Shown: positions 4,351 through 52,313 of the stretch, piece by piece | Layout of the letters: each line of letters begins with the position of its first letter | Position numbering within the stretch: position 1 is the first letter of the stretch | Source of the DNA: Bispira polyomma | Taxonomy: Eukaryota | Reading direction: 5' to 3' | Length of the DNA: 64,000 bases | NCBI GenBank assembly: GCA_965649765.1 | Contig: OZ287749.1 | Span: forward strand, 38,192,001 to 38,256,000 | Notes under the pieces: generated by a model | The model's database searches: none | Seen by the model: the letters and a program-made list of their open reading frames with translations, nothing else | What the model was told of the DNA's origin: nothing | Program-made: the position numbers and the translations under genes

Positions 4351-4403
4351 GTTGACTGCATGAAATTTGTCAGTAAAATGAACAACAATACTGATGTTCC
4401 CTT

Positions 4404-19070: not shown

Positions 19071-19333
19071 TTTGATGGTTTAGATATTATTTTCTTTTTT
19101 TGTGTGTGGGGGCAAGTGTATTATGTTTTGTGTGTGAGATAAGTTATTGGTAGTAGTATATAGTGTCTCTGCAGAATCTGACAATCCCGCTCTTTCCCGC
19201 TCCCGCTCTTTCCCGCTCTTTATATTAAAAAAATTTTAAATTTAATTTTTTTAAATTAATTTTTTTATTTTTATAAATAAATATTTTTTTTTTGTTTGTT
19301 TATTTTCTCTGGTATATACAAAAATTTACAACA

Positions 19334-19600
19334 CTAACATTTGAAGCTGGGGTACAACATTTTCAAGAATTGACAATTGCCTTTTGAATGATGTAGGTGT
19401 TGGTGCATAGGACAATCAGTGGGTGTCCATTGCTGTAATATTAGTTTACACCAGACACACTGCACCTTATCACTACTTTCTAAGTAATGAAAACCAGCTG
19501 CTGCTAATCTCTCTGCACACACGGGATAATCGCTGGACCAAAGCCTGAAGCTCCTTAGTCTATCATCATATACTGTGTAAGTACAAACCCACCCACAAAT
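19334..19600 (-). CDS. Single-BIR inhibitor-of-apoptosis-like protein (start uncertain)
   Basis: YDDRLRSFRLW...ERLAAAGFHY....DKVQC-x2-C-x16-H-x7-C. Confidence 0.85.
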   Translation of the reverse strand: MCGWVCTYTVYDDRLRSFRLWSSDYPVCAERLAAAGFHYLESSDKVQCVWCKLILQQWTPTDCPMHQHLHHSKGNCQFLKMLYPSFKC

Positions 19601-19750
19601 GGCTTATTACTCTCTTTAGTTGTTAAATTATCTTTTAAACTTGAAGCTCTCAATCCCCAGATACCATCTCCACTTGACATTCTCGACATTCTATAAGATA
19701 AGACTTTACCAACCACTGGTAAAAAATGAAATGATTTTTACTTTTAAATC

Positions 19751-19787
<37 letters not shown>

Positions 19788-19844
19788 CAAACCAATCACA
19801 TTTACAATAATTAGCAATCAATCTATATTTTTGTCCTGATCTCT

Positions 19845-20224
19845 TTAATCTAAACTCATAACTACTCTTTTCATTTGATAGATCTCTGAAAATCTTGTAC
19901 AAAAAAAAGTGTCATAGTTGAAGACGAATACACAATGACAATTTGAACCCCTATTACAAAGTAACCAAAGATCATCAGTGTTTCTCAGCAATGTTTTCAG
20001 GAACTTTTGATTTTTAATGAATATACTTAAATCACCTAAATCATAATCTGCAATATTTGAACATTCTCTACTCCATTCAACCACACTTTGACAATCAAAT
20101 CAGGATTATATAAAATTAAAGCCAAAACCATCATCAAACATATGGAAGTGTGCATAAAATATAATATCAGGAAAAAATGAAACAAGATATATGGGTATAA
20201 AATTTTATTATTATCAAACCACAC
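19845..20224 (-). pseudogene. Unknown small accessory gene, probably frameshifted
   Basis: Two overlapping ORFs co-oriented with their neighbours and flanked by (TA)n tracts. Confidence 0.3.
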
Positions 20225-20227
20225 ATA

Positions 20228-20261
<34 letters not shown>

Positions 20262-20301
20262 CATATCCATATTTACATGAACAAACACTAATTACCATGA
20301 A

Positions 20302-21006
20302 TCATTTCAAGAAAACTACAATGTCCAGTCCAATCATTTCAAGAAAACTACAATGTCCAGTCCACGGCTCATCCAGATAGTCCCAGGAGTGCATTGTTAC
20401 AGAACACCACACGCAGTGACAACAATCCCCAAGTCCAGTGTACATAAATCCAGCTCTAGCCAGCTGCTCCGGACATACTATATGACTCTTCTTCCACCCG
20501 CTGTTGAAACTATCTAACCGATTTTGGTATAGTTTGAAATTTCCCTTTTCTAGATACTTTTCTGCAACAGGAAGTACCATCTGCACGTATTCGCATTCAA
20601 GATTTGACTTGGTGTGTAATTGCAGCAGCTCATCAAAGTAACTCCAGCTGTGCAATACTAAACAACATTTGTCACAAACACACCTATCACCCTTTCCAGT
20701 ATATCTGAATCCGGCTCTTGCCAAATCTCTTGGTAGAACTAAAAGATTTTTAGGCCAACCCACAAAACTTTTTTTTCTGTTTTCATAAAGTTCGTAGTCT
20801 AACCAGTCACGATACATATCCATTGAATTATCTGCATCCATTAGATCTGCAAATTTTTTCCTCAATTCATCTGTACGACTAACCACAGGTTTTCTTTTTC
20901 TAAAACTCGTAGCTGAAGCACCCACCAGACAATCATTCGTATCTTCAAAGTCACTGTTGCTTACAATATTTTCAGACATGCAGTCAGAAACCTCTACCTC
21001 AGCCAT
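20302..21006 (-). CDS. Two-BIR IAP-like protein without RING; second BIR damaged
   Basis: BIR1: R.KSF..W...LARAGF.Y.G..D.C.C-x2-C-x16-H-x6-C. BIR2 has the same pattern but His is followed directly by Cys. 32-bp duplication at 20300-20364. Confidence 0.9.
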   Translation of the reverse strand: MAEVEVSDCMSENIVSNSDFEDTNDCLVGASATSFRKRKPVVSRTDELRKKFADLMDADNSMDMYRDWLDYELYENRKKSFVGWPKNLLVLPRDLARAGFRYTGKGDRCVCDKCCLVLHSWSYFDELLQLHTKSNLECEYVQMVLPVAEKYLEKGNFKLYQNRLDSFNSGWKKSHIVCPEQLARAGFMYTGLGDCCHCVWCSVTMHSWDYLDEPWTGHCSFLEMIGLDIVVFLK

Positions 21007-21048
21007 GTTTGAAAGTTTAACTGATCTACCACTCTATGAAAGTCTCTC

Positions 21049-21462
21049 TTATATAATATTTACCTCACTAAAATTGCTATCATAAAATTTTTTAACCATC
21101 AAATCATTACGTAGCAAACTATTATCAAAATCTTTTAAAATATTTTGATAAGTTCTACCTCTACTCCGATGGTAGGCAAAATATAAACAGTATTGACCAC
21201 ATAATAAGCTGACAGAACTTTGCAAACCCACTGTATTTCTTACATATTTTTTTCCATGGTTGAATAAAAAAGTTTCAAAATTTTGTTTAGGTAAACCACC
21301 TAAAGAATCAAAATATTCGCCTACACTGTTTACCCACATAGCAATCCAATGTTCACCCTCATGTGGATAAGGTTTTGTATTTACAATTACGATATGTGGT
21401 AAAGAAGATAGTATGTCGGGTAATTCATTAGACGCATAACCCCTACCGAAATATTTTTTCAT
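21049..21462 (-). CDS. Adenain-type cysteine protease (catalytic residues intact, 5' end probably damaged)
   Basis: IVNT....GEHWIA, EYFDSLG, LQS..S.LCGQYC. Confidence 0.9.
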   Translation of the reverse strand: MKKYFGRGYASNELPDILSSLPHIVIVNTKPYPHEGEHWIAMWVNSVGEYFDSLGGLPKQNFETFLFNHGKKYVRNTVGLQSSVSLLCGQYCLYFAYHRSRGRTYQNILKDFDNSLLRNDLMVKKFYDSNFSEVNII

Positions 21463-21495
21463 CTTTTGTCATTGCTTGGCGAAGTTGATGAGTAT

Positions 21496-22751
21496 TCATA
21501 TTTCTATAGCTCTGGATTCATCAATGCTTAACATCGCAGGAAAACGTGCGTATAGTATAACAGTAACACTTGTCGCCAAACCTTTGGTAAAGTTTGCTGT
21601 GATCCTTGTATGTCCTTTTTTTTTAGTTGACTTTAAAGCACCCGTCACATTGCTGTCGATATTGAAGACGATAACCATTTGGATAATCTGTATACTCAAT
21701 GTCCCCTCCTCTTTTCCATATTTTGCGTAAAAGAGACTATTATAACTTTCAGCATATTGTCCACTCGTATAGCTTGGTTGTGTTGATATATATGCATCTT
21801 TATAGACAGGTCGAAAAGGTCGAGAGAGTACTGGTACCCCATCTACACTAAATTCAAGATAATTTAAATAGTAATGATGAAACTTAAATGGATTTTTTGT
21901 ATAACTACCGCTATAGGCCTCACCACGAAAGAACTCGACTATTAGTTTGCTAGGTACATTTCCATGAAATATTCCATCATCTGACCAGTTGAAACTCCCC
22001 GCTGCTATAGTGAATGTCTTAAATTCACTTTGCCAGTATGGGTACAAAGCAGGTGTAGATTTTAAAGCCGTTGCATGAGCCAGTGCAAGTTCAGGATTTA
22101 ACTTAACCTGACATATCATACTCATATCACACTCATTAGTCTAAATACATTAGAACTTGGGTAAAGCTTGAAATTGATTTGCACACCATTTAAAATTAAT
22201 CTCTCCTGTTGGGTTAGGTCCACGTGGAGTGGAGAGATCAAATCAACCTCATTACTTAATGCACACCTATCTTTTCTAATTCCGAAACCTGTGTTACCAT
22301 CTCCTATCTCATCGTGTCTATCAGCGGTATCATTAGAAAACAATTCATTTTTCAATTGTGAAACTTCCCCTTTAAATGTGTTATGTAACCAAACATCTAA
22401 AATGCTTTTGTAGGGATAGTTGATTCCTATAGTTGATTTTGAAATGTTAATCTGTTGCAATGAAACGTCTAACTGTCTAAACAAACAATGCAGTGCTAAA
22501 TTAACAGGTCCTACTTTTGCATCAGCAGCAATATTAGTTCCATCTAGCTTAACTATTTTAAATCTTACACGCAATCTCGATTTTTTTAAATCTATATAAT
22601 CTGTTCCGTCTCCTGGTATATTTATCTCAATAACATTACCATCTTTAACCTGTCCTGTTGATCTGTATTCTACCCAATCGATATGATGTATAGAAGGATC
22701 AATTAGTGGTTTCTGAAACAGAGCCACCTTTTCTTGAATTACATTCATCTT
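21496..22751 (-). pseudogene. Major capsid protein (hexon/PY), frameshifted near 22125
   Basis: LF.KP.ID.SI...WVEYR, LFRQLDVSL, YPYKSIL, LH.DL.QQERLILNGV, ALYPY, NPFKFHHY. Confidence 0.9.
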
Positions 22752-22932
22752 GTAAATGTTCCTTATCCTTATCTCCATGATAAAAGACTTAGGGAATGGA
22801 TGTCTTAACAGATTATTTATATAAGTATCCTTATTTTTCTTTTTATTCTTTCCTTTTGTGTTTTTTTAATGTTGATTTTTTTCTTCAGTCTTTTAATCAC
22901 TTTCTTTTTTTTCCCCTTTATCACTTTTTTAC

Positions 22933-23532
22933 CTACAGGACTTTTTGTTTCTTTTTTAATTCAGAACGTGCCACATCTACCTGCTGCTCTGTAGGTGAAA
23001 CAACGGTTACAAGTCCCTTTGCTTTCTCCTCTCTACCGCCACCACTTTTTCCTCCTAATATATATAAGTTGTTATCTGTAATCAATTTCCCCGCACGCAT
23101 ATCCTCACATACCTTCACCCAATTTACCATTTTTATTTTTTTTAAAACCTCCAGGATCAAAACTGCTCTTGTAGTTGATGTGCTGACGGGTAAAGAACCT
23201 AAATTTTTACCCCTTATATACACTTTGATTCGAGAAATATCCCTTCTGGTGATATCTTTGTAATAAATATTCTGAAACTCTCCCATCTTTCTAGCTATTC
23301 TTAGTAAAGGTCTACAATGATCTTCTACCACACTTTCACCAATGATATCATAAAAGACATAAATGTTATCTGTAGCCTTGACTGTGTCATAAGTAATTTC
23401 ACCTAGTCCACATTTCCATAGTCCAACCAGGTTTAAAATTTCAGGTAATTCTACAGTAAAACCCCAGGAGTTGTTTTTGGGATGATACTCTACAGAATCT
23501 GTAGATTGCAGATATAAGTATAAACGTCTCAT
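22933..23532 (-). CDS. Compact penton, read through into a downstream basic core protein
   Basis: LYLYLQS.DS...HP.N....FTVELP..L.L.G.WKCGL.EI and IYVFYDII.ES.V....RPLLRI. Second part MVNW...KSGGG...VVSPTEQQV..ARSELKK, followed by K-rich sequence. Confidence 0.75.
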   Translation of the reverse strand: MRRLYLYLQSTDSVEYHPKNNSWGFTVELPEILNLVGLWKCGLGEITYDTVKATDNIYVFYDIIGESVVEDHCRPLLRIARKMGEFQNIYYKDITRRDISRIKVYIRGKNLGSLPVSTSTTRAVLILEVLKKIKMVNWVKVCEDMRAGKLITDNNLYILGGKSGGGREEKAKGLVTVVSPTEQQVDVARSELKKKQKVL

Positions 23533-23555
23533 AGCTGTTTTTTAAACTCTGTATG

Positions 23556-24687
23556 CTATATATCTTTTACGTCCTCCTCAGCTACCCAACTGTTAAATTT
23601 GGATGAGTAATTTTCCCATTTGACTAAGTATTCTGTATTTCCTCCCCTGGTTCTAGTCTTAAGAATTTTTTCAATTCGGTATGTTGTATTGTTGTCAGAG
23701 TAAACCTTTTGCGGTTCTGGATTATAAAAAAACCTCCTATGAGCTCATTGTTTAAATCTTTTAATTTATACTGTGCCTTACCCTGGTTCACCTTCCTTTG
23801 TGCAACCACAAAATTTTCACCTGAATACCTCTCGTCGTATTCTCTTTGAAAAGACTTTGATAGGTAAGCAACCTTTGCAAGATCTTTAACCTTTAATTTA
23901 AAGGGTGATTTAGATTTTGGTGCTTTTTTCTTATTTTTATCACTTATATCTTCTTGCTTTATATATTCTTTTGGGAGATACTGTTCCCTCCACAAATCGT
24001 AGTCTTTCTTATCACGAGCTTCTGTGGGAGTACTTTGCAACATTCTGTGGAAACTATTATTGTAAGACTCTGTAATATCTTGTAAGTCCTCAACCCACTT
24101 GAAATTATTTTTACCTGTCATCATTCTGATTAGTTTTAATTTAACAGTTTTTATAACTCTTTCAGCCATAGCAACCTTGGTTTCATTGTTACTCATAAAA
24201 TGTATTGTACCTTCAATCTGTAGATACCTTTGCACTGTTTTATTTTTTGTATTCACTTCCTCTGTTTGTAAATAGAAATGTAAGCCTTTGTTTCTTGAAG
24301 ATGTTCTCTAGTTCTTTTTTCATTTCCTCACCGGTCAGTCTATGCAGTGGAAAGGTCCATAAAAACTGGGTTAAGGTATCTATAAGAACACAAAAGTAAC
24401 CATAACCCTTATTATATTTTTTAAATTTTGTCATGTTAGCGGTGTCCGAGTTCCATTTTTGGTCTTTTTTTACAGCAATCGTAACCGGTCTTTTAAATTT
24501 TTTTTAACCGGTCGGTGCAAAACAAAGGAATTTTGTTTGCCTAACCATTCTCTAACCTCTCGTTTGAAAAAGGAATATTTATTTTCACCTTTCACGAATA
24601 TATAAATTTATTAAATCCTCCATAGGAAAACAGATTTTTACTGTTATAATAAATATTATGTAGATAGTTTTCCTTTTCTTTATCCAT
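23556..24687 (-). pseudogene. rve integrase with chromodomain, frameshifted
   Basis: YLHNIYYN, LIDTLTQFLW, KVAMAERVIKTVK, YNNSFHR, ERYSGENF, LVKWENYSSKFNSWV. Confidence 0.9.
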
Positions 24688-24705
24688 ATATATACAATAT
24701 TAATA

Positions 24706-25101
24706 TCATTGCCAATTTTCTGCCCAGATCTCATATGCTTTAGCCAATTTTCTCTTTTTGGGTTTAACTTTTTTTTCTGGAATTCCAGGTGGTGGTATTG
24801 TCAGTTCGCCAATTTTTGACTCTCTAACCTGATTACTGTCTAATACCTTGTTTGATGAGGGAGCTGGTGTATTAACAAGGTTCCTTTTACCACCAACCTG
24901 ATCACTGTCCAACTGGTGATTTGTCACCTCAACCTCTTTAGTATCAGCTGTAGTAGTAAAGCTGTCATCTAAATTATTTATACACACTGTCATTTTCTGG
25001 TTGCTTCTCTTTTGTAATTTCAGGCTTTGTTGTAGAAATAATTTTGCTGCTAGAAGGATTGTTTGTAAGTTCCTTGTAGCATTCATATGGTAACAAGACA
25101 A
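24706..25101 (-). CDS. Polinton hypothetical protein containing QVGG and PPGIP motifs
   Basis: Co-oriented ORF between ATPase and integrase. Confidence 0.45.
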   Translation of the reverse strand: MSCYHMNATRNLQTILLAAKLFLQQSLKLQKRSNQKMTVCINNLDDSFTTTADTKEVEVTNHQLDSDQVGGKRNLVNTPAPSSNKVLDSNQVRESKIGELTIPPPGIPEKKVKPKKRKLAKAYEIWAENWQ

Positions 25102-25107
25102 ACTTAT

Positions 25108-25425
25108 TCATGACAAAAATTTTAGCAGGTCATCTCCAGCCAGCTTTAAAAGATTCAAAATTTTTCTTTTATTGTTTTTAAAAATTTTAGAAATTTCATT
25201 CCATTTTAGATTTCGGTTATTCAGTCTTTTAATCAATCGTACATAATTCTTTATATTTTTTCTATATTTGTTCAAATGAGCTACTTTCAATATATTGATA
25301 AAAATTTCTATTAAAACCTTTGCTTGCTTTTCATTCAAGGTATCTATTAACAATTGTCCTTGTTTTTCATGACTTTGAATCAATAGTTTGATCAAACTTG
25401 AATGTTTTTTTACAATTGGACTCAT
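25108..25425 (-). CDS. Small basic Polinton conserved protein (probable homolog of 4123-4350)
   Basis: QAKVLIEIFINIL pattern resembles LLHCFIECAHNLL; K-rich. Confidence 0.5.
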   Translation of the reverse strand: MSPIVKKHSSLIKLLIQSHEKQGQLLIDTLNEKQAKVLIEIFINILKVAHLNKYRKNIKNYVRLIKRLNNRNLKWNEISKIFKNNKRKILNLLKLAGDDLLKFLS

Positions 25426-25445
25426 ATTTATATGTATTTTCTAGA

Positions 25446-25985
25446 TGATTTTTTTTACTTGCTCATGTATACCACAGTGTCCTCACTAGGTAATATATGG
25501 GTTCTAAATTTATACTCTGTTGTAGAGTGTGGTGAGAGATCAATCAGTTGATAATTGTAGTTTTCATCTGTTGCATCTCGATAAGCCTCTTCTAGTGTTT
25601 TTTCCAGCCAACTTGCTGACCAAGATATTTTATCTGATTAATATCTCGTGGGTTTTTAAACAATAACAGGTAATGACTGTTAAGGTTTATTGTTCGTAGG
25701 GTTTTTCCACGATAATATAAATTTTGAAGAATAGTAATCACACTTAAGTGATAGTGGTGACAGTAAGCTGTATATAACCTCTCTACAAATTTACTGTCAG
25801 CTACCTCTTCCTGCAGATCATCTAAAACACACCAATTGTGTGCTCCATTATTTAAAGATTCTATCTGTTTGAGATCGGGTAACCCTTTGTTAAATACTAT
25901 ATCTCCCTTTTCTTGCAGTTTCTCATAGATGGGTTGCTACACAGAATAACAATATAATGTTTTCTCTGGTGGTTTTATAAACATT
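25446..25985 (-). pseudogene. FtsK/A32-type packaging ATPase, N-terminus (Walker A) missing
   Basis: Manual translation MFIKPPEKTLYCYSV*QPIY...KGLP...CVLDDLQ (Walker B)...YCHHYHLSVITILQNLY...RTINLNSHYLLLFKNPRD. Not in the ORF track. Confidence 0.85.
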
Positions 25986-28900
25986 TAATTCTTACATTGC
26001 TAGCAGACAGACTGCATTTGGTCTTTAATACATTTTCAAATATGTCTATTGGATTTTTTAATCCTCTCTTTGAAATACCTTTGCAGGATATCTTATCTGT
26101 ACCATCCTCTTGTCTCATGATATATGTTTTTGATGACAAACAAATTGCTTTAGTAGCTCTACATTCCACCTTAAATAATGATAAAGTACGACGGTCAAAT
26201 GCAGCGTGTTTTTGACAGCACAATCTTGGAAACCAAGGTGGGATGAAATGGTCATTACAAGAGTGGTATACATGCCTTTCAAATTTATCAATAAGAGTAG
26301 GTTTAATACTGTTTTTAAGACTTGCCTGACTCAAAGCATAATAAGCACTGTCGGTATCAGTCTCTAGCATTTCAAAATCTGATCTGTCTACGTATTTATC
26401 TAAGCAGTCATAATAAAAGGACAGCAGTTTTCACTTTGCATACTGGGAGATAAAGTAACCAATCTGTATTGGTATATCTAAAGTGATTTTGTTTTTAAAT
26501 CTCTCTACCTCATACATTGTATTATTCAATTCTGTAATGTTTTTAAAGATTGGGGTATTAACCATAAGTCTTGCTTGATGATCTCCCTTGACATATTTCA
26601 CCTCTAGGTGGCGCTCTTTAGACATTATTGTTGATCCAAAGCTCGAATTATCAATGAGTTTCGACAACTCAGCCAGCATGGCCTTGGAAGCTTTATCCCC
26701 CTCTCGTCTCTTGTCACAAATTTCAAGAGAAAAGTCCTCAAAATAACGTTTTAGAACATATTCAATCACTTGATAAATATAGGACTCATTTCACCAAAAT
26801 ATTCTTGTGGAGAGAGTTTGGTAAAGGACTGGAGCTGTTTCCCATCTGTCTGGTACCTCTAAATCAACCTGCATAGCACCAAAGATTTCATCATCTTTAA
26901 CAGCTTTGATGAGTTGCTCAGTTGACAACTCTCCTTTCTGTTTGGTGTAATATCTTGGAAGGTAATGCAACCTGATATTTTCAGTGTCCTTTTTAATATA
27001 TTTTTGTTAATAACATTCTGTCATAACAATTATTTCATAACCGAGTGACTGGATAAAGTAATTTCTGACTTTTTCACGTTTTAAACAAGCCTCTGTTGCT
27101 TCATGCCATTTTTGCGATTTAATATGTTTAATCAGCCTACAGGTATGGTGGTGTGCCCAACAGCCATTGTACTCGTACACTTTATTGTGTTCCGAGTCGT
27201 ATCCATCTACTCTGTAGGGTCCTATACGATACTCCTTTCCACTGTTCAGTCCGTGCCTAATCTGTAAATTTTCTTTTTTAGCAACAAAATCGAGCTAAAT
27301 ATATTGTTCTAAGTATCTCACTGGTACCTCTCCTTTAAAATTTGACTCCTTTCTTCTTCTTACATATAGCCCAGTAGGTTGGTTTTGTCCAATAGCCCAC
27401 AAGTACAAAGCGTTTGAGTCTCTCCCGTCTATATTTTGTACTATCTTTTTTGGATTCTCTCTGATACATGTTTTGTCTACCTCGTGGTACCTTCTAAATA
27501 CGATAGATGGACCACCTACTATTCCATTTTTCATGATGTGATACATATCTCTGTTGGCCTCATCAAATAAAGAAAATCTAGATTTTGTTGAATCAAATAG
27601 AATTTTTTGTGCAATACCTGGTACTGATATAAAATTTTTAAATATATCAATTTCTCTCTCAAAGTAAAATTTTTGCATCTTTGCTATAGCAGTGCAAAAC
27701 GGTTTCACATCTAGATTATTGTACCAGACAAGAAAATCCCTGAATGAGTGCATGTCATTTTTAAGTCATATCCATTGCAATGTCTGGTAATTTTCATGAT
27801 TCTTTAAAAGATTGCATTTCTTCAGGTTTGAATAGAAAGCATCAAATGGGGGAAGTTCTGTATATTCTAATTTTTCAATACTGTCAAACCATTTGTATGG
27901 AAAATATCCTTTACACTCTGTAACCTCATAACTTCTTAGGAAATTGGAATAACTAACTCCAGGAGCTATGTAATTACTAATGTCTAAAAAGTTGAAAGAA
28001 GGTAAATTTACTGACAGGTAATTATTATTTCTTTTGATAGTGTAACTGCTCTTGTCTTCTGATTGAATCAGATGGGTTATCAGAGAACCCTTAATCAAAT
28101 TCAGATCGTATTTTCCACTATTGAAACCAAGTACGGGTAGTTGTGTAGTGTACTTGTTAAAGTCTTTCTCTAACTGATCAAATTGTATATTTACAGCTTC
28201 CTCAAAATTTTCTTTAAGTGTTTGAATTTTTTCATAACCATCACACCATCTTACTTTGGCTATTTCACTGCATTTTATTGCAATCATTTTTAGATACTCA
28301 ACCATAGATTCGAGTAGTTTATCTATGTCAACATTAATAAAACACTTTGCATTTTCAAATCCCTCCACATTTGAACAAATTGATACACTAATGGGAACGT
28401 GTTCTGATGTGAACTAAAGTCTTGAGTTTTCCCTGTCTATTGACTGTTTTACTATCATTGCTTCAAAATCATACACGGCAAAATATGGAGAATTTCTTCT
28501 TTCTGTTTCTACAATGATTTTAAAGGCATCTAGTTTTTGAAATATACTGATAGGTGGTTGGTAGTAAGTATCTTGTACGATTGCAACACATGTTCAAATG
28601 TCTCTTTAGAAGTGTTACAGTTTTAAAAAACTTTTCACATTGACTGCATTGGTATTTTTTTTACTGTACCTAGCTATATCATGAATATAGCTGAGATGGT
28701 TTTCAAACAAATAAAGATATAGTGTGTCATCATAAGTTTCCATAGATTTATACACAGTAATGACTGTTCCACTACTTTGTTTAGAGAAAATGTTTACATT
28801 AAGGTTAAAACAAGTTTCAAAATCAGGCACATTTTCAAGCTCTATTCCAGGGAAGTCACTATGGTGCTTTTGATATTTCATATGCTCACACCAGACATGG

Positions 28901-30133
28901 TAATATTCTAGGCAGCTTGTTTGAGACCGATTCTTGTGTAAAGCAAGAGCTCTAAAAGCACACAGGTTGTCTTTGTGTAGTTCACCTTTTGAGTTTTTAT
29001 CTAAAGCTATTATAGCTTTTGATTTACAAATATAATCCGGCACAGTTTGAATGCTATTGCCTAGTGGATACACTGTCTGCATTATGTTGTAATGTATATT
29101 AGTAATCATCGCTGGCACCCATTTACTACTAGGTTTTAAATTTCGAATAAATTCAGGAATATCTATCTGTTTGATTCTATGATATAAATGACTCAAATGA
29201 CTTCTCCTAGATAAATTTATCCAGAACTGGAAATAATTGTTCATTATAAAAAGGCACAAAATATCTGTAAGAGTCATCTCCCATGTTTCGTAGTATAAGA
29301 CCGAATGAGAGATTCAACTTAAATGCATTGTTTTGAGTTTCGTAAATTGCATCTAGGTGTTCAGATATTTCCACCATCCCTCCTTCTAAATTTACAGTGG
29401 GAAAATTATAAGTTGATCTTATTCTCCCCCTGATGTCACATGCTAATATGTGATTTTTATTCTGTTCATATGTATCAGCCATTTCTTCACTCTCAAATTG
29501 ATAATTATGAGGTAACACATGTCGCTGCAGACCTCTTTGACCACCAGTTTGTGAATGTTTGAATATTGTGTAAATATAGTTCCTATTTTAAAGAAAAAGT
29601 TTGATTACATTTGTTACATTTATTTCTATTTGGAGTAGAATCAATCACGATGGCTTTAAATTATCACAACTGTGACCATTTAGATCTGATACAGTTGAAA
29701 AAACAATTGAGCATTTTTTACAGCAGTATTTAGTCTTTTTGGTCATGGGTTCTGACTGCGCATCGGAGTTTTGTTGAAGTAAAGGTTTGCTGTTGTGCTT
29801 TTGACAAGATTTTAGATGAATTTTTTTAGAACAACCATCCTTAAAAATCTTTCCACACTTGTAACATTTTAGGCAAAATCTTTTATGATCTTCTTTATAT
29901 TCATGAAAATTAAACTGCATTTGACAATTTTTGCAGTCTTTAGGCCGACCACTACAACTACTTTTCTTATAACATAATCTCAGATCTCTGTAGAGTGACT
30001 GTATGTCTTGGAAAACTTTTCTGCATATATTACATTGCAAAACTTGTAATTTTAATTCTTTACAAGTGTGCAAATGTCTCAATAAATTCCTTTCTCTTTT
30101 AATGTTGGTTTGACAGTAAGGACATTTCATCAT
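25975..30133 (-). pseudogene. polB: Protein-primed family B DNA polymerase with N-terminal C2H2 zinc fingers, many lesions
   Basis: Zn fingers 29645-30133; DNLCAFRALA; ExoI VYDFEA; ExoII GFNSGKYDL; KGYFPY; ExoIII YNNLDV; GGPSIVF; motif A DSNALY; motif B KLIDNSSFG; motif C TDTDS. Confidence 0.93.
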
Positions 30134-30420
30134 TCTGTTTTGCTCTAACTAAGCTGGTGGCTAGATTGACAAAGAAGTCTACTTATATATATTAACATTG
30201 TTTAGATAATGACAGAGACAATGGTGTAAGGGTTTTATTTATAGCATGATGTAACATAAAAATGACCTCATGTATAGTTAATCATTAAAAACAAACAATA
30301 GTCATAGTATATACATGATTCATTCTGTGTTACACTCATTATCTTGTAGGGATGACATATATTTGGTTTCTTAGTCATCCGGTTTATCCGATGTGTATAA
30401 CCTTTGAGGTTATTTGAGGA

Positions 30421-30567
30421 GTTGGTCATTGTTTGTTCTGGTATGAATCAATGCTGTTTGCTAGTTGACTCTGGTTAAACAACTAGCATATGTTTTACAA
30501 GTTGGTCTTGTTTGTTCTGACATGAATCAATAATATGTGCAAGTTGACTCTACATAAATATCTAGCA
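30421..30567. repeat. Two diverged ~67-bp direct repeats with an 80-bp period
   Basis: gttggtc.ttgtttgttctg..atgaatcaat...tgc.agttgactct at 30421 and 30501. Confidence 0.75.
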
Positions 30568-30595
30568 GGTTTCCACATCCAGTATTTGACACGAC

Positions 30596-30677
30596 ACAGT
30601 CATGGCCTAGTGGTTAAAGTGTAGAGCTTTGAAGGGTACAACGTGGTTTCGAATCTGGGCCCGGTAATATTTTTTTT
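30596..30677 (+). ncRNA. tRNA-derived Pol III unit, copy A
   Basis: A box TGGCCTAGTGG (30603-30613), CTTTGAA loop, B-box-like GGTTTCGAATC, T8 terminator at 30670-30677. Confidence 0.6.
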
Positions 30678-30956
30678 ATTATTATTTTCTAGTAGTTTTG
30701 TATTCAGAATAAAAGGTCCTTTCATATTTTTACCTCTTTGCAATGCACATTAATTTACTATAGCAAATCCTTGTAAATGTGTGATGGTACCTATACCAGA
30801 AAAAACAATCATCTTTCCTATTAGTCTGTGGTTGTATATTGAATAATGAAATAGGTGTATACAATATTATAAGAATGAATGAAATATTATTATTTAAAAA
30901 TATTGCCGAATATTTCCCAACATAATATAATACCTACAAATTTACATAATAATAAT

Positions 30957-31040
30957 AAAAAAAAAAAATTACCTGACCAGGATTCAAAACCACATTGTAC
31001 ACTTCAAAGTTCCACACCTTAACCACTAGGCCATGACTGT
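30957..31040 (-). ncRNA. tRNA-derived Pol III unit, copy B (convergent with A)
   Basis: Minus strand ACAGTCATGGCCTAGTGGTTAAGGTGTGGAACTTTGAAGTGTACAATGTGGTTTTGAATCCTGGTCAGGTAA followed by T12. Confidence 0.6.
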
Positions 31041-31603
31041 TTCATGGTAATCATTGGCGCAGATATATTATTAAAATAAGATATACATTGAAATGCCACC
31101 ATATAAAGTCACTACAAACACATTACATGAGACCATTGTAATGCTGTTAAATATATGTTATTAAATTGCCAAATATATTATAATATATAGATTTTTTAAT
31201 ATGGCCAGATGAATTTTATTACCTCTTAGAATAGTAAAATCTGTACAGCAATGTAAATAGATCATTCTCTTTGGCAGCAGTAAATGAAAGCTACACTTGA
31301 AATAAATCTGCATATGTTAGAGATCCAGATTTTGTGTGCACGGTCCAATGTAAATATAATTAATCTTCTTAATGTGACATTTATAGTGACTGGTGCGATG
31401 TGTGTGAGGAGGATTGATACTGGAGTCTTAGTTGTATAGTCTGATATACAGCAGATTTTTTATAAAGCTAGCAGTTGTATAAAGGACTTACAGTTGAATA
31501 GTGCTTAGTTTAAAAACTTTTCACCAGAAAAACTAAAACTTTGATTTTTACAATTTCTTTTTTGTTATTTCATTATATTTGTTTTCTCAACAGCGATACA
31601 GTT

Positions 31604-32808
31604 ATGGGTGCATTGCTCTTGTGTGCATTACTCATAGCTTTGGGTATTACATATGGAGAAATATGTGACAAAAGGTGTTACTGTGGTACACGCTTTGTAA
31701 CCTGCATTAGTGTTATAAATCCGTCATTTAAAGGAGTAGATTCTTTAATATCAAGAGTCTACTTTGAAGATGTCTTACTACTAGATGTGTCAATTATATT
31801 TACAAACTTTCCAAGTGTAACTGAACTAAGTTTAGTAAATTTGAGAAAATTTGATTGTCGGGAGATGATGGAGATCCCAGTTAGAGTGACAGTGCACACA
31901 AATATGTGAAAACCTCAAAGCACCCCTTCAGCTGTTGGTGAGCCTACGTTAGGTTACACAATTTATGACACCACAGAAATAAAAAGAGATCAGGATACTG
32001 CAGGTACAACAAAGGGAAATCAGGATAGCACATCGCCTACAAAGGAAATTCAAGATAATTTGTTTACCACAAAGACAGATCAAGATACTACACGGAGCTC
32101 TAGGATATATGCTGATACTGTTAGTGTCAATTCTGATCCATCCATGGATGGCACTACCTCTATGCAAAATGTAACATTGGTTGATTATACAGTTCTCAAT
32201 TCAGATCTGATTAGGTTAACCACCATTAATTCTGTCTAACAAATTAGACTGAACCGTGATTTAATTATAGCCATTGTGATTGGTGTTACGTGTGTCGCAG
32301 GACTTTTGGTAGTGTTTGTGCTGGTATGGTGTAAATTAAGACAGCGACGAGCTTTGCCAAATGAAGTCACCTCTATTGAGATGATGCCAAGCTCTATTTA
32401 CACTGGACCCACATCAATAGATTTATATGAGCAAGACAGTGAAGAAGAGTAAGTTTAAAACCATATTTAGCTGTTGATTTATTTTTGATAAATCCATGAT
32501 TTAGATAAACTTAACTCAACATTAGACTGTTTGTTTAATTTGTTTGGGTTCTCTGCTTGGAGTTGATATATATCTGAGTGTAATAGTGGTGTGCATGTAT
32601 TATACAAATTTTGTTTTTGTATTTGTTTCATAGATTTTATGAAAAACCGTGTTGTCAGCATTTAGGTTGTGAGAATACCAGAGGATCTAGCAGATCATTT
32701 GATTGTATTTATGAAAGTGTTGCAAATTTAGATAACAACACTGACATTGAAGTTGATTTAGATTCAACTTTTGGGTCATTTGTTAGTACATCAGATGAAG
32801 TTTCTTAG
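31604..32808 (+). pseudogene. Spliced type I membrane protein 1 (signal peptide, Cys-capped LRR-like ectodomain, S/T/D stalk, TM, Tyr-motif tail); two in-frame stops
   Basis: One frame from 31604 to 32448 with stops at 31907 and 32237. TM LIIAIVIGVTCVAGLLVVFVLVWC followed by KLRQRR. GT-AG intron 32449-32633 joins in phase to FYEKPCC...IYESV...EVS*. AATAAA at ~32846. Confidence 0.75.
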
Positions 32809-33709
32809 GTATGTTTCTCATAATTTATTATTGATTCGTTTAAATAATAAAACAAATATAATATGCCCTACTATAGTGGTTTTCTATACTGGTAACCTCA
32901 ATGGAAACTAATCAAGGAGTCCTCATATAGTAGAGATTGAGAACCAGCCTAATCTGTCAATACACATAATACATGTGTACTAGGAAATCAATAATTGAGT
33001 GGGTCGTGTCTTTGTCTGTGTGAAAACATTGATTGCTAGAGAATGTATTTTTCTGTAACACCTAAAGTGTACATAGTTTGAAGAAATAAGCATTCAATTT
33101 TTACAATTTAATTAGAATTGTGTATTACACACAGGTCGCTGACAAAACTACTTGCAGAGAACAATTAACTGATTAAGTGTAGACCTTGTTTTTACTAAGT
33201 ATACCACAGAAGTGAAGGGTTTACATGTGACTCGTGACCACGGTAAATAATAGATGATTTAACGGTTATATCTGCAGACCTTGTTTTTATTAAGTCTGTG
33301 GTTAATATATATATACCTCAGAAGTGAAGCACATATATGGGAGCGATAATGACCTTATTGAACTTTGCCCCTTGACTCGGCAAGAACCGTCAACAAAAAG
33401 TACAATATCCAAATAAAACATGTGTGTGCGAGTGATAAAGTAGAAAATTCCATATAAGGATGTCTATCTTGTCATTGTGTTTTAGTCTGAACCTAAATTC
33501 GGTATTTTGCTCTGTTCTGGTATCTAGTACTGATTTCTAAGGTGTGGTGACAATGTGTTGTTGATAATACGTAAAAGTATTTTGAATTCGTGGATAATAG
33601 ACCAAGTTGTTTGTCTATACAACAGCATGGTTGTTGATAATCAGTAAAAAAAGTAGGATATTTGCAGATTTTTGTGTTTCAGTTAAAACCTTATAGGCTA
33701 GTATCAGTC

Positions 33710-35228
33710 ATGCATGTGTTAGTGTTTCTGTTTACCGTGTGTTTTGCTGCATGTAGCACTGCTGATTACACCTGTCGACTGATGAAAGGGGGGAAATTAT
33801 ACTGCACTGGCATGAATGATGGTGACATTGCTGTTTTCAAAAGTGCCAGTGCCCAACATATAGTGGTGTATAACAGTGACATAACTTTGGTTAATGTTTT
33901 TGAACTAGTACTAAGAATACCTTTGTTGCAAAGTATACGAGTAGATAGTCATGTGCATTGTGGTTATATCCCATTTAAAGGAGTAGAGGTAAAGGGTTGC
34001 GACTTAATTCAAGCTGGTACATAGCATAGTTAAAATATAGTTAGGTTGTTATTCATGTTTATTGTGTTTTTTCTTTTCGTTTTGACTGCAAACCTGTTAC
34101 GTTCGTGATTGTTTTATTTAGTGTTATAGTTATTTCCCTTGTTACGTAGAAACAGCTAATGCTGATAACCTTATAAATAACTTTGCTCTGTCAGGATGAA
34201 GATTAAATAAACCTAGTGATGATATTTTTGAACAACATAAACTTCTCGCATCATACCTATAGTTGGTGTCATATAGTTCACAAATCTCCAATTTGCTCTG
34301 ATAGAACTAGAACCTGCTTAAGTAGAAGTGATTGTGCTGACCCCAATTTAATTAAAGTTATTTAGGTATAGACCAGTGATAGTTAGTGACATATAGAACA
34401 CAAATCTCTATTAAACCAAAGGACTTTATTGGAATTTAAAATAACAGTTCATTGGGGCATGTTACTCACCGTATGATGTAAATGCAAGATTTTTATCTCT
34501 AGCAGCTGTTGTTAAAGAGTGTTGTGACTTATTGTGCACATTATTAAAAAGTTTATTAATACAAAATCTCTTCATCAGAGCTGAGTTCCTGGTCCTCCCT
34601 TCTGTGATGTATATGCAATACTTATATCACTGTTGTTATCACTGTTGTTGCTGTCAGCTGTTATTGAAGAGCATTGTGGTTTATTGGAGGATCCACAGCT
34701 TGCTGTTTCTTTTGACGATGACAGGTCCCAGTCAACCTGCTAAAAAAATTAATTTTAAAAAAGTTTACATATATATTTTTTTTTTGTTTTACAGTTGATG
34801 TGTCACCTAAGGAGGACACAGTTGCAGAGAGAAAGTTGGTTGATGATGAGCAAGCTTTTCGAAAGATCAGGATTTTAAAAACAGACGATGTGTCTGCTAA
34901 TACCAGGATAAATACCGATATAATAGACAAGATAGATTTGATTGAAATAAGCATACCATCTAGTTTGCTGGCGAGTTGTTTACCAATGATTGCTTTCTTA
35001 ATTTATAAATTTGGAGGGAAGTATTGTGTGAGATTTGCTAGAGCAAATCATAGGGGACGTAGAGACATGTATAATAGACTGTTAACGGATAATGAGGATG
35101 TTGAGGAAATTGAGATTACAGATTTATCTCAAACAAACAAAAAAGCTAGTGGTGATGGATTTACAACAGTTGAAATTTCACCAGTTGCAGATAAAATGGT
35201 TACCAGGTCACAGGTAATGAAAATGTAG
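33710..35228 (+). CDS. Spliced type I membrane protein 2, probable paralog of protein 1
   Basis: Signal peptide MHVLVFLFTVCFAACSTA and a Cys-containing ectodomain. Phase-1 donor at 34017 and phase-1 acceptor ttttgttttacag at 34794 join in frame to ORF 34800-35228, which has a hydrophobic stretch and acidic tail. Extra internal exons are possible. Confidence 0.6.
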
Positions 35229-43927: not shown

Positions 43928-45136
43928 ATAGATTTGAGCTTTACTGTTGCTGATTCTTCAATGGATTTGTGGGGATCAGTTATGAGTAGAGCTTTAAATA
44001 TGGAAGCAAGGGACACAAATGCAGAAGACTGATTGGTAGATCAAAATAAGGATTTGACGAATCCCTATTTAGTGTAATTGAGTTATATCAGGGAGGGGAT
44101 TTCCTATGGATCAGAGCTGTCATTGGGATTGGTTAAAAATGTGTCATATCTCCGTGTGTGGTAAGAGCTTTCTTTCGAAACGTTCATGCGTCGCATAATA
44201 GCATGATCAGACTGGAAAATTTACTTTTGTTTGTATTGTCATTAGGTTACCACAAATGTTCAGACTTGTATAGAGGAATAAATTCTAAATCCTATACCAT
44301 ATTCCTGCTTTTTACAGCTACTATCGCCAATATTTGTTGCATAAAAGAAACAAAATTTTCATTACATAAAGAATTAGTCAACAGTATATTTAATTGTCAG
44401 TTAAATTTGGTTATTGAGTAAATATATATGATTGAGTCACAATTAATTATATGTGTGTCTACACCTATTAGATTTACTCATACTAAGAGAAATTTTGAAA
44501 AATTTGATTTGATATTTGCTATTTCCATTATCATAACAGTGGTAAATTAACTTTTCAAATGTATGACTTTATAATTACAATTACACTGTTTCAATATAAC
44601 AGAGGTGATTGTATTGGTATTAAAGGTGTGGGTTTATAATGTGTAATACAGTAAAAGAGGCATTATGAGTTTCGTGTAGAGATTTATCCTTGGTTCTGTT
44701 TACAGTGGTGAGTGATTGTCTGGTGTAATGTTTGCCTTTGCCTAGTGTTGCATTACAAGCAATGCGTATAGATATAGGTTGAATCAGACAGACGGAGATT
44801 CTAGGCTTGTCATGCATTATAGACATTTCACATGGATTGTAAATAGACGTTCATGGATTGCATATAGACAGTACAGTCTCCGGGGTGTACTTTTTGTATT
44901 TGATAATGCTTGGTTGGGACATGTTTCTCTGACTTGGGATTTATTATGAATAAATTGGTTAAAAAATAATGTGTCCTTGTCTGTAAGCTTGCAATACAAT
45001 ATAGTATTAAAGTTGCAAAAGAATTGATAAGTTATATACTCTTTAATTCCTAGAACAATGTTGTTTTTTTTTGTTCATTACAATTATAATCGATATTAGT
45101 ACACACAATACCTGATTATGTAAGATTATGTACCTC

Positions 45137-45996
45137 TGTTACATTTATGTTACATTTTAACACTAAAATGTTGGGTCAAAGATCGTATAGTAGTTCCCAA
45201 ACCAAGTTTATTCTAAATACATGAAAACAACAACAATATACTATAACAAAAATAATATTTAAACACCCTAAATATCTGACGCCAGAACTATTAACGGTAA
45301 TAATATTCCACAAGATGTAAACAAAACAAATGGTAAGTCAATTCAAAGTTCACAGTTGAACAACAGTTAATTTGCTGTAACTCTACACCAGCAAATAAGG
45401 TACGTATCCAGCCTGTATAGCAGTATGGTAATTCTCCTTGAATGTAATGTACATATAATAGTTCACCAGCATGTAGGAAATCAGAGTAGTCAAAGGTAAC
45501 CAGTAGCGACCTCATTATACTAGGATCACATCAGTAAGACTTGGGTAGGTATAACCTCATGTAGCCCAGTTCACTACCAGCTATAGGGTGATGCTCACTA
45601 TAGTCTACAAATAAAGGACTAAACTACTGAACATTGGGCTTGGAAATAAACTAAAGTAGTTCTCAACTGAGTATACATTAAAGCATGATAATAACAACCT
45701 ACATCTATACAATAAGAAATAAACTACACATTAAACTAAAGAATCCTAATGCACAAATTATATAAAGTAATATTTACTCACATTATACACCCCAGTACAA
45801 AATAACCCAACTTGCTCCACCTTGTCCTTTTAACATGTGAGAAAGATTATACAAAGACAGAAGCCTAAATACCATAACAGGCAATATTCACATATTGAAA
45901 ATCACACACACACAATCTGTGTTCTAACCATAGTATTTTCGTATTTAATTTACACTCAAATAACCTAACCATAATATTTACACTCAATACACAACA
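45137..45996 (-). repeat. LTR 1 (terminal 3' LTR); inner boundary estimated
   Basis: Minus strand TGTT...AACA; PPT-like AGGGTGGAAG at 45999-46009. Alternative boundary 46032 (TGTAACA). Confidence 0.7.
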
Positions 45997-46089
45997 TACT
46001 TCCACCCTAAGACCATACTTGCTATTGTTACAAAAATAACCGCCAACAACCTCACCCACAAACTACTGTTCAGCAATCTTAAAAATAAA

Positions 46090-49000
46090 TTACGCTCTGC
46101 TCAGATAGTCAGCAGCAACATTTTCTGAACTCCTTATAGCTCTAATCTTGAAACTAAATGATTGTAAGAACAATGCCCAACGCATAATGCGGCTATTATC
46201 CATTTTTGACCTCTTAATGTAAATGAGGGGCTGATGATCAGTCTCAACTAAGAATTCTTTCCCATACAAATATGGAGCAAATTTCTTGATTGCCCAAACT
46301 AGTGATAAGCATTCTTTCTCTATTACAGCATAGTGCTTTTGAGTATCAGACAGCTTTTTACTAGCATATTCTACAGGAAACTTGCCATCATCACCTTCCT
46401 GCATCAATACCGCTCCTATACCATATTCAGAGGCATCACTCTGCACAATAAATGGTTTCGCAAAATCTGGTAATCTTAGAATTGGTCTCTTTGCTAGAAG
46501 TTCTTTCAAAGCCTGAAAAGCTTTATCTTGAGGTTCCTGCCACAGTACTTTGTTAGGTTGACCTTTCTTAGTGAGATCCGATAATGGTGCAGAGATAGCA
46601 CTGAAGTTGGGAATATACTTCGAGTAGTAACCAATAAAACCAAGGAAACTTCGCACCTGCTTCTTGGTCACAGGTATAGGCACTGACAAAATATTCAAAA
46701 CCTTTTCTTCGTCCGGTTTCATAGAACCATCACCAACATGATTCCCTAAAAAATTGAGGTTTTTGAAACCTATTTGACACTTTGACGGCTTTACGGTTAA
46801 GTGCGCATTTCTGAGTCGCTGGAAGAGTTTCCTCAATTCACTCAAATGCTGGTCCCACAAAGGCGTGTGACATAGAATATCATCTACAAAACTGTCACAG
46901 AAATACAGATCTTTCAATAACTTCCGCACCATCTTGTTGAAGGTTGCCGTAGCATTTACCAAGCCAAAAGGCATCTTGAGAAAGCGAAAGCTTCCCTGAG
47001 GAGTGAGAAAGCACGTCTTATCTTGACTACCTTCTTCCATTGGTATTTGCCAGTATCCCTTTGTCATGTCAAACTTACTGAAGAATACATCCCCTGACAA
47101 TTTTGAATATATGTCATTAGCCGTCATCATTGGCTCTGTTGAAAATACAGTTTGTAGGTTAAGATTCCGATAATCTGCACAGAAGCGAATTTTCCCGTCC
47201 TTTTTCTTCACCAGCACAATAGGTGATGCGTAAGGTGAGTCACAACTACCGATCACACCCAACTTCAGCATAGTCTCAACTTCTTCATCAACGACCTTCC
47301 GGAGATGATAAGGTATGGGATATGGCCTCTTCCTGACAGGCTCATCAGTATTCAACACAATTTTGTGCTCTACTAAATCCGTAGTGCCTGGCAAATCAGA
47401 AAATATATCTTGGTACTCTTTGAGTAACTGTTGGACTTCTTGCTTTTGATTTTCTGTTAGTGTAGGACTAATGGTCACATCTTTGTAAGATTCATTCTGA
47501 AGATACGGAAATAAATCAATTAAGTTTTCTTGCGTCTCTTCTTGTTCCTCCTCAATCAAAGATACAGCCACCATGTCCAATGGTGCACCACCAACAGGCA
47601 AGTCACTTCTCACATCACTTTCACGTCGTTCGAGGTAATGCTTCAACATGTTAGCGTGAATAACTTTCACCTTCCCTTTCATGCTGACAGAGTAGTCATT
47701 CACACCCTTAACATCCATGACCTCATACGGACCTTTCCAAGACATCAACAGTTTATTGGCTACAGTAGGCAGTAATACCAGAACCTTATCACCAACTTGG
47801 AATTTCCTCGGTTTGGTCTTCTTATCATACCATATCTTCGATTTTGCTTGATTCTTTCTCAACTCTTCTTGGGCCAACTTACAAGTATCTTCCAATTTAT
47901 TTCTCAAATCAATAACATACTCATAGGTTGTCTTGACTTCATCTGGGGTTCCTTCCTTTGTCCACAACTCATGAAGTATCTGCATAGGTCCACGGACAGT
48001 TCTTCCATAGAGCAACTCAAATGGTGAAAATCCTAGGCTAGCTTGAGGAGTCTCTCTATAGGCAAATAAAACTGCCGGAATGTACCGGTCCCAGTCTTTA
48101 GGTTTCTCCTGACATAACCTTCTCAGCATTGACTTCAGTACAAGGTGGAATTTCTCAACAAGCCCATTGCACATGGGGTGGTACGGTGTAGTAACCAGCC
48201 GGTTGATACTCAGCAACCGTGAGACCTCAGACATCACACTGCTCAGGAACTGAGAACCTTGGTCACTCAAAACTTCTGATGGCACACCTACTCTTGTAAA
48301 TATGTTGACCAATGCCTCGGCAACAGCTTCAGAATCTATGCGTTTCAATGGAACAACCTCTGGATACCTGGTGGCATAGTCCATCAAAGTTAACATATAA
48401 CGGTAGCCCCTATCTGAAACTGGATTAATGGGTCCAACCAAGTCAATCGCTACCCTTTTGAAGGGCGTGTCAATTATGGGCATGTTTTGCAATGGAACTT
48501 TTGGCAGTCTTCCCTTCTGTGAAGTCCTCTGGCATATGTCACACGAATTACTGAATCTGCTGACATCATTTTGAAGGCCTGGCCAGTAAAAATTCTGCAA
48601 AATCTTGTCCGTTGTCTTTCGTATGCCCAAATGTCCTCCAAGTAAAGCTTCATGCGCAAGCTTTAGTACTTTTGTTCTAAGTATCTTTGGAACCATCAAT
48701 TGCTTCACCACGGAGCTGTTGACATCAGACAAAAACCTTCGGTAAAGTAGTCGAGACTTCACTTCAAACCAGGTCACATTGTTGCCTCTAACACATGACT
48801 TCTGCCCACTCTTGGCTAACTCCCAATAACGCTCAAGGCTGCTATCAGACATCTGGGCCTCAATCAGGTAGTCAACTGTGATGCTTGCATCCAATGGGGT
48901 CATGGTATGTAATCTCTTTTTATCTGAAACTGGATTAATGGGTCCAACCAAGTCAATCGCTACCCTTTTGAAGGGCGTGTCAATTATGGGCATGTTTTGC

Positions 49001-51012: not shown

Positions 51013-51138
51013 GTCACTATGGTTACCTTACACACTACTACTACTGGGGTACAACTTCTGGACAAGGCACACAAGGCCAACCGTAACACTTTTGATCACT
51101 TACACACACTGTATGACTACAGCCACAGAACACTTGAC

Positions 51139-51232
51139 TTGGGAATCCACCCAAAATAATGAGAATCCACTCAAATATGTGTGATGAGAATCCACTCTAT
51201 CACAATCCTAATACTGAGAATCCACTCAGTTA
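51139..51232 (-). promoter_or_regulatory. Four leader stem-loops with an identical UGGAUU loop (candidate packaging signal)
   Basis: Plus strand: ttggg-aatcca-cccaa, tgag-aatcca-ctca, tgtgatgag-aatcca-ctctatcaca, actgag-aatcca-ctcagt. Confidence 0.65.
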
Positions 51233-51434
51233 TTTACCTGAACACTTGTTCACAACGTAATAACCTTAAGTTGAGTATCCACGCACCCACCCAAATAGTA
51301 TGAAATCCAACACAACTGTTCCCGGAAATAATACTATGTACCCCCCTAAGCTGATATACATATAATACATGCAACTACCTTACCCTGCCACACCTAGTAT
51401 ATACTTCTATGTTACATGTCACTAAATTTGGGAT

Positions 51435-51452
51435 ATCCTGGTCATGGCACCA
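51435..51452 (-). promoter_or_regulatory. Primer-binding site, tRNA-His (also 57752-57769)
   Basis: TGGTGCCATGACCAGGAT 1 nt after the LTR; 17/18 complementary to the metazoan tRNA-His 3' end ATCCTGGTCACGGCACCA (recalled from memory). Confidence 0.85.
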
Positions 51453-51453
51453 A

Positions 51454-52313
51454 TGTTACATTTATGTTACATTTTAACACTAAAATGTTGGGTCAAAGAT
51501 CGTATAGTAGTTCCCAAACCAAGTTTATTCTAAATACATGAAAACAACAACAATATACTATAACAAAAATAATATTTAAACACCCTAAATATCTGACGCC
51601 AGAACTATTAACGGTAATAATATTCCACAAGATGTAAACAAAACAAATGGTAAGTCAATTCAAAGTTCACAGTTGAACAACAGTTAATTTGCTGTAACTC
51701 TACACCAGCAAATAAGGTACGTATCCAGCCTGTATAGCAGTATGGTAATTCTCCTTGAATGTAATGTACATATAATAGTTCACCAGCATGTAGGAAATCA
51801 GAGTAGTCAAAGGTAACCAGTAGCGACCTCATTATACTAGGATCACATCAGTAAGACTTGGGTAGGTATAACCTCATGTAGCCCAGTTCACTACCAGCTA
51901 TAGGGTGATGCTCACTATAGTCTACAAATAAAGGACTAAACTACTGAACATTGGGCTTGGAAATAAACTAAAGTAGTTCTCAACTGAGTATACATTAAAG
52001 CATGATAATAACAACCTACATCTATACAATAAGAAATAAACTACACATTAAACTAAAGAATCCTAATGCACAAATTATATAAAGTAATATTTACTCACAT
52101 TATACACCCCAGTACAAAATAACCCAACTTGCTCCACCTTGTCCTTTTAACATGTGAGAAAGATTATACAAAGACAGAAGCCTAAATACCATAACAGGCA
52201 ATATTCACATATTGAAAATCACACACACACAATCTGTGTTCTAACCATAGTATTTTCGTATTTAATTTACACTCAAATAACCTAACCATAATATTTACAC
52301 TCAATACACAACA
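51454..52313 (-). repeat. LTR 2 (shared by adjacent units)
   Basis: Identical to LTR 1 at +6317; PBS on one side and PPT on the other. Confidence 0.75.

Follow-up and report, generated by a model that had tools for sequence, protein, structure and literature searches.

Two 72-nt units with the geometry of a tRNA gene face each other (convergent) within a decayed Polinton of Bispira polyomma, at the middle of the 64,000-nt stretch that was analysed as a whole and is called the window below. With about even confidence, we explain them as tRNA-derived Pol III-type mini-genes of one Polinton lineage that were carried through two insertions; the gene was likely captured from tRNA-Ser, its inverted duplication likely preceded these insertions by a short time, and the pair is likely a passenger that decays without selection. 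To judge from the sequences compared, the units are element-borne, lineage-specific and derived from tRNA-Ser and not Gln-like, and they give no sign of a structured or conserved RNA. The features of the window are as follows.

19151..32456, no strand: part of the Polinton common to an independent insertion on C9 (C9:51841963-51854925); left end TAGTAGT, flanks differ
29645..30133, minus strand: N-terminal piece, with C2H2 zinc fingers, of the broken gene for a protein-primed polB; further fragments of this gene extend leftward to ~25975
30579..30702, plus strand: left arm of the inverted duplication; comprises the unit with ~20 nt of flank on its 5' side and the T-rich tail
30596..30667, plus strand: unit 1, tRNA-derived, with the geometry of class I; A box at 30603-30613 and imperfect B box at 30647-30655
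30670..30677, plus strand: Pol III terminator-like T8 run after unit 1
30754..30932, no strand: fragment from the inside of a high-copy host MITE; both terminal inverted repeats are mostly missing; also in the C9 copy
30935..31057, minus strand: right arm of the inverted duplication
30957..30968, minus strand: Pol III terminator-like T12 run after unit 2, in minus-strand reading from 30968
30969..31040, minus strand: unit 2, inverted copy of unit 1; A box 31033-31023, imperfect B box 30989-30981 with internal T4
31604..32452, plus strand: interrupted gene for a predicted membrane protein, rightward; common to the C9 copy and a sister family

Each of the two units contains TGGCCTAGTGG and, besides a CTTTGAA loop and a T-run, a B-box-like motif. 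Counted from the sequence, the spacing in each corresponds to a class I tRNA whose variable loop has 4 nt, and T8 or T12 comes next. The inverted arms (30579-30677 and 30959-31057) are 99 nt long, 82% complementary and 281 nt apart; they form the longest inverted repeat of the window, and their similarity reaches beyond the units into ~20 nt of 5' flank and into the T-rich tails. A sequence-only reading of this stretch had described two diverged convergent copies ~280 bp apart and ~460 bp upstream of polB, each with a perfect A box, a B-box-like motif and an immediate oligo-T terminator, and without SINE body or A-tail. Most of this agrees with our counts. We counted the 15-letter A-box motif twice in the window, whereas 100 shuffles had 0.12 on average and never as many as 2. 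In both units the A box, of Pol III type 2, scored 20.6 bits compared with a host-tRNA mean of 20.3. From unit 1 to the nearest ATG of the zinc-finger/polB frame (30133) we measured 463 bp. A T-run, and not an A-tail, directly follows position 72 and no SINE body was found; T8 (from 30670) and T12 (from 30968, minus strand) give each unit a T4+ terminator just downstream. The B box calls for a correction: the motif is present in both units but it is imperfect, with 9.3-11.6 bits in the three copies scored against a host-tRNA mean of 18.4 (minimum 8.5). In the usual numbering of tRNA positions it has T where tRNA has G53, in 4/4 copies including the fourth, which was read and not scored, and unit 2 carries its T4 inside this box. 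The B box is the main determinant of TFIIIC binding. The units were probably Pol III-competent once. A sigma-70 promoter scan was at chance level and is irrelevant for an animal genome.

The pair is located in the divergent intergenic region between polB and the membrane-protein gene. The zinc-finger frame is colinear with polB in relatives, and its later part is in frame with polB in the one relative checked. The window's polB fragments themselves gave no Pfam match, and the protein-primed polB that marks the carrier as a Polinton/Maverick was recognised via homologues of a relative's polB frame: searched with a natural piece of that frame, 59% identical to the window piece, we obtained polB homologues which carry PF03175 and C2H2 fingers and which come, where the source was named, from molluscs and other marine invertebrates. 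There is also a weak adenoviral protease match in the Polinton. Beside its protease, the element encodes an inhibitor-of-apoptosis protein with two BIR domains (window 20302-21033, Pfam E 2.8e-28). In its right arm (31604-35228), signal or transmembrane segments are predicted for three frames that run rightward; these frames are partly common to the sister family and gave no notable Pfam match.

Other mobile elements were observed in the same window. A second, different decayed Polinton fragment at 773-6700 has capsid-like and integrase-like frames by eye and short tandem repeats near 6520-6670, and contains no tRNA-like unit. At 45132-64000 an LTR-retrotransposon-like unit is repeated head to tail in three near-identical copies at a spacing of 6317 bp; its frame of 1640 aa includes SCAN, zinc knuckle, RT and RNase H regions and two of integrase type.

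The Polinton copy on C9 has both units and the same spacer at the same place, while its flanks differ from those of the window copy on C2. The left end is common to the two insertions, and a right end was found in neither stretch examined. A shared Polinton end with differing flanks means that there were two integrations and not a segmental duplication. In the genome, the unit body retrieved 3 matches from 3 candidates scored, in a DNA search that skips common words, and a natural 23-letter stretch of the unit with up to 3 mismatches found the four units and one stray match, compared with 3 matches for a control. In run X1, the contig depth of the unit bins was 26-89 and that of the spacer 17,797; the three public runs used belong to one study, possibly of the source sample, and give only a rough guide to copy number. 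As these searches stay below profile level, they may have missed relatives of less than ~75% identity. By itself the A-box part is frequent (1561 genome matches), because the heads of host SINEs share it, and 28 non-window loci of the 30 A-box loci fetched run on into other sequence. The units are thus part of a mobile element and absent elsewhere in the genome. The sequence-only reading had named a BLAST of the unit against the host genome as its check, and had said that a dispersed SINE or MITE end, missing at this position from other copies of the family, would speak against it; we found the unit body confined to two Polinton insertions and in place in the C9 copy.

With no further occurrence of its body in the genome, the unit does not qualify as a dispersed SINE or as a MITE end. 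A dispersed tRNA-derived SINE was rejected on the four units in two elements, the low contig depth and the lack of body or A-tail. A MITE terminal inverted repeat was rejected too: units were absent from the ends of 18/18 dispersed copies of the MITE core that were fetched, where the match covers the core only, and the termini of dispersed copies, where present, are unrelated to the units. The spacer MITE itself is abundant, with 1256 search candidates and a contig depth several hundred times that of its flanks; it has terminal inverted repeats of roughly 95 nt that end in TA in several copies (loci L036-L053).

The units cannot form a cloverleaf. When a cloverleaf layout was imposed, as specified by us and not predicted by a tool, 19% of cells were paired in the acceptor stem, 50% in the anticodon stem, 50% in the T stem and 83% in the D arm, so that only the D arm pairs; poor pairing of the acceptor and anticodon stems had already been noticed from the letters. 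The RNA of the units folds no better than shuffles (z +0.39 to +1.29 for three copies, two of them at two lengths). ARAGORN predicted 0 tRNA genes on the units, and Rfam gave no RF00005 match at E up to 10 and no match to another family. A functional tRNA gene was rejected on these grounds, and a check by tRNA and RNA-family tools, of the type that the sequence-only reading had named, came back empty. The same was true of the suggested check for covariation: among four unit copies from two Polinton copies, that is only four rows, 0 pairs were changed on both sides.

We compared the units with host tRNA genes to find their origin. Among 17 sampled host anticodon classes, Ser(TGA) with 64.0 and Ser(CGA) with 63.0 scored best, followed by Leu(TAA) with 58.5, against Gln(TTG) with 39.7 and shuffles with 22-27; the sampling of host tRNAs is incomplete, as 63 of 154,496 candidates were scored, plus added Ser and Gln genes, and genes for Glu, Asp, His, Gly and Pro are absent from the sample. 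Under the labels Ala(TGC), Cys and Ser|Phe, the best members appear to be variants of the Ser arrays with altered loops. In alignment with a Ser(TGA) gene, 49-52 of 66-67 positions are identical, with a gap at the variable arm. The sequence-only reading had called the units tRNA-Gln-like, which holds for the 7-nt CTTTGAA loop only; in the first 27 nt, 24-25 are identical to host Ser(CGA) and 10-11 to host Gln(TTG). By these scores the closest sampled host gene is tRNA-Ser and not tRNA-Gln. Host tRNA-Ser genes and pseudogenes in arrays (C3:12.4 Mb, C8:47.3 Mb, C1:100.2 Mb) resemble the units in those 24-25/27 first nucleotides, whereas the units lack a variable arm, an acceptor stem and a T stem and deviate in the loop and at the 3' end.

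The 3' part of the unit has no such relative. Its best score was 28.8 among 137 A-box heads (only maxima were used and family labels are crude), against 62-74 unit against unit and 17.7 in shuffles. A likeness of the 3' end to tRNA-Glu was tried and rejected, for a 13-letter motif gave 48 matches against 53 in the control and 0/29 such loci held a tRNA. The T-run in terminator position and the lack of an A-tail argue for capture of gene DNA and not for a retrocopy, and the donor tRNA gene may have come from another host. The host tRNA genes have features of their own. Large tandem tRNA-Ser arrays lie at C3:12.37-12.44 Mb, together with tRNA-Leu, and at C8:47.31-47.38 Mb, and many members of these Ser/Leu arrays are CpG-decayed or anticodon-altered. 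A tRNA-Ser(AGA)-like gene at L229:950-1020 (C6 near 2.665 Mb) has an insert of ~17 nt after the anticodon, apparently an intron.

The four unit copies of the two insertions allow a view of what happened after integration. A 24-nt deletion in C9 unit 1 removed the 5' half of the A box, and the A box is damaged in both C9 units. Pairwise differences among the four units are 6-12 of 60 without grouping by arm; with all four at about the same distance from one another, the arms were nearly identical at the time of the element's last move, which may reflect recent duplication or homogenisation. The units diverge faster than their surroundings. Between C2 and C9, counted on BLAST segments, 18/122 columns of the units differ compared with 410/11,256 elsewhere, about fourfold (Fisher p 6e-7), and 4.8-5.4 differences would be expected after correction for base class; no window of 60 columns in the element diverges more than one in unit 2. 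The excess lies mostly in CpG-prone columns (12/35 versus 5.4%), and outside of them the units have 6/87 differences versus 3.3% (p 0.07). It fits methylation-driven decay of a CpG-rich hairpin or transcription-associated mutation, and our data cannot separate the two; a mutation rate raised 7-10-fold at transcribed tRNA loci is reported in PMC6130373. Purifying selection on the units after insertion is not visible in these comparisons.

Other Polintons of the genome were surveyed for the unit. There are at least 165 polB-related matches in the genome, from several Polinton families, some with open frames of ~1,800 codons. We fetched 10 kb upstream of 40 of the best polB loci, which fall into four families, and neither the unit nor a comparable inverted pair was present at any of the 40. 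Eight of these loci are sister copies, ~65-72% identical in the polB piece where it matched fully; they have no homology to window 30134-31295, and in them the same intergenic region is rearranged, with tandem copies, an inversion and hairpin inserts. ARAGORN found 0 tRNA genes on the 40 upstream stretches and Rfam found 0 matches on 15 stretches around other Polintons. Then 40 further stretches were added, from other parts of some of these elements and from six further loci. A box scan of 800 kb around other Polintons plus the window gave 10 matches, namely 8 SINE-type heads without T-run and the window's 2 units, and 0 matches with T-run in shuffles; the scan was trained on host tRNA boxes and is biased to the sampled isotypes.

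The same region of 3/8 sister copies has an unrelated motif of an A-box-like element and a strict B box, for which the expectation per 2.5 kb is 0.004, but it represents one event and was noticed before the test was set up. Its sites are L120:3030-3150 (plus), L094 near 6349 (plus) and L132 near 3155 (minus). This sister-family unit is tandem, ~100 nt long, with boxes 56 nt apart, an internal T4 and no stable fold (z 0.05), is inverted between copies and is unrelated to the window's unit. No such motif was present in the first 2.5 kb at the other 32 of 40 polB loci, which belong to the three other families. Outside the host, a pattern scan of viral contigs gave 1 match that was not tRNA-like, scans of metagenome contigs gave 0 and 0, no Polinton relative was confirmed in viral contigs, and phage records gave 5 short matches, in the T-rich tail only.

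From these results we propose a course of events. A tRNA-Ser-like gene with its T-run would have been captured at the DNA level into the variable intergenic region, where the variable arm and the stems were lost. Fold-back or template switch, perhaps at the terminal repeats of the MITE, could then have produced the inverted copy. Host TFIIIC and Pol III would probably have been able to bind, giving from each unit an unstructured RNA of 75-80 nt that ends at its own T-run. After the two integrations, the units may have been eroded by CpG decay and possibly by transcription-associated mutation. Some points stand against the passenger reading. The A box, the box spacing and the terminator survive though the 3' part has no close relative, and long selection for a Pol III promoter would leave the same; and both insertions are dead, so that decay after insertion is silent on function in the active element.

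The units might instead be functional small RNA genes that the element encodes and keeps in two copies, with a short Pol III RNA as decoy or regulator in the viral phase, similar to VA RNAs or TMERs in origin and promoter and not in structure. The host-like A box, the tRNA-like spacing and the immediate T-run would be expected of such genes, as would the fact that the window's units are the only matches with A box, B box and T-run (2/10) in the box scan, and the fourfold excess divergence resembles the raised mutation at transcribed tRNA loci (PMC6130373). But the absence from all 40 other polB loci, the sister copies included, the imperfect B box of all four copies, the lack of stable structure and the concentration of the excess in CpG-prone columns make us regard this explanation as rather unlikely. 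It is improbable that the units act as DNA, namely as TFIIIC/Pol III sites which would set up a boundary or an open stretch of chromatin where the polB and membrane-protein promoters diverge, and which would delay provirus silencing. The position in a divergent intergenic region would suit this role, a tDNA barrier in fission yeast needs TFIIIC and Pol III and is orientation-independent (PMC2040200), and the unrelated box motif of the sister copies lies in the same region; however, the B box is the weakest part of the units, and that motif is limited to the one sister family.

A somewhat poorer prospect is that a host tRNA-derived SINE was inserted in the Polinton, lost its body and was then duplicated, with the unit as what is left of its head. 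A host SINE head does match in register through the loop, with 202 genome matches versus 2 in the control, and matches 24.8 of 31 nt on average and 28 at best in 26 loci, a figure inflated by picking the loci with that pattern; in another SINE family, two copies have the same letters after the B box. Ahead of the A box, however, the host SINE heads that match through the loop agree with the unit at 0.7/7 nt, the first 27 nt are closer to tRNA-Ser as given above, the 3' half scores 16.1 compared with 14.4 shuffled and 28 unit against unit, and a T-run stands in terminator position with no body or A-tail. We think it very improbable that the inverted repeat itself is what matters, either as an imperfect hairpin of ~100 bp in a Pol II transcript for Dicer/PIWI or as a DNA hairpin during strand-displacement replication. 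The 479-nt stretch that spans the pair folds at -155.5 kcal/mol (z -15.3) and its arms were near-identical at insertion, but any inverted duplication folds so, the 40 other loci have no comparable pair, and such a transcript is hypothetical. The sequence-only reading had expected that read-through would form a long dsRNA hairpin, and this part did not hold up. The two Pol III products have the same sense, so they cannot pair with each other, and four T4+ runs per strand lie between the units; it means that only a Pol II transcript could form the long hairpin, and Pol III read-through between the units is unlikely.

Our preferred reading, lineage-specific mini-genes carried as passengers, has consequences of its own. 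If the units are passengers, the intergenic region of these elements collects host DNA, here a tRNA remnant and an adjoining MITE piece, and A and B boxes in a Polinton are, taken alone, no evidence of a viral RNA gene. A bolder idea, which we offer tentatively and rather doubt, is that host tRNA genes are taken up time and again by animal Polintons and cut down to mini-genes of promoter and terminator, that this pair is young and still recognisable as Ser, and that the fourfold mutation excess is the footprint of Pol III transcription in the germline. Such recruitment and paring is the step hypothesised for the origin of the adenovirus VA RNAs. In the literature searched (titles and beginnings of abstracts) we found no paper on Pol III RNAs of Polintons.

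Known viral systems share some traits with the pair. The tRNA genes reported in virophages, for which acquisition from the host is discussed as one origin (PMC6905037), and the predicted tRNAs in MELD viruses, mentioned once, in a legend, in the adintovirus paper (PMC8502044), are like the units tRNA-derived sequences in Polinton-related viruses; they are predicted genes with assigned anticodons, whereas the units fail ARAGORN and Rfam. The TMERs of murine gammaherpesvirus 68 resemble the units in being tRNA-like, in having a T-run and a type 2 promoter internal to the gene, and in lying in a DNA virus genome. They join a tRNA-like fold to downstream miRNA hairpins and have a triplicated A box (PMC8223928), in contrast to the units, which have a T-run right after position 72, no cloverleaf and no hairpins after the tRNA part, so membership among the TMERs was rejected. 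VA RNAs are antagonists of PKR, Dicer or Exportin-5. Membership among them was rejected as well, on the length of 72 nt, the z values and the missing Rfam match. [quoted passage not shown] The earlier proposal of VA-RNA/TMER analogues is not supported. What the pair does have in common with VA RNA I/II is two A/B-box units in an element with a protein-primed polymerase and an adenovirus-type protease, and the VA genes are themselves hypothesised to derive from a tRNA gene (PMC7589676). Should the units prove to be transcribed and to have been selected, a Polinton would have Pol III small RNAs of its own, and the path from a tRNA gene to a viral RNA of the VA type would have a traceable intermediate.
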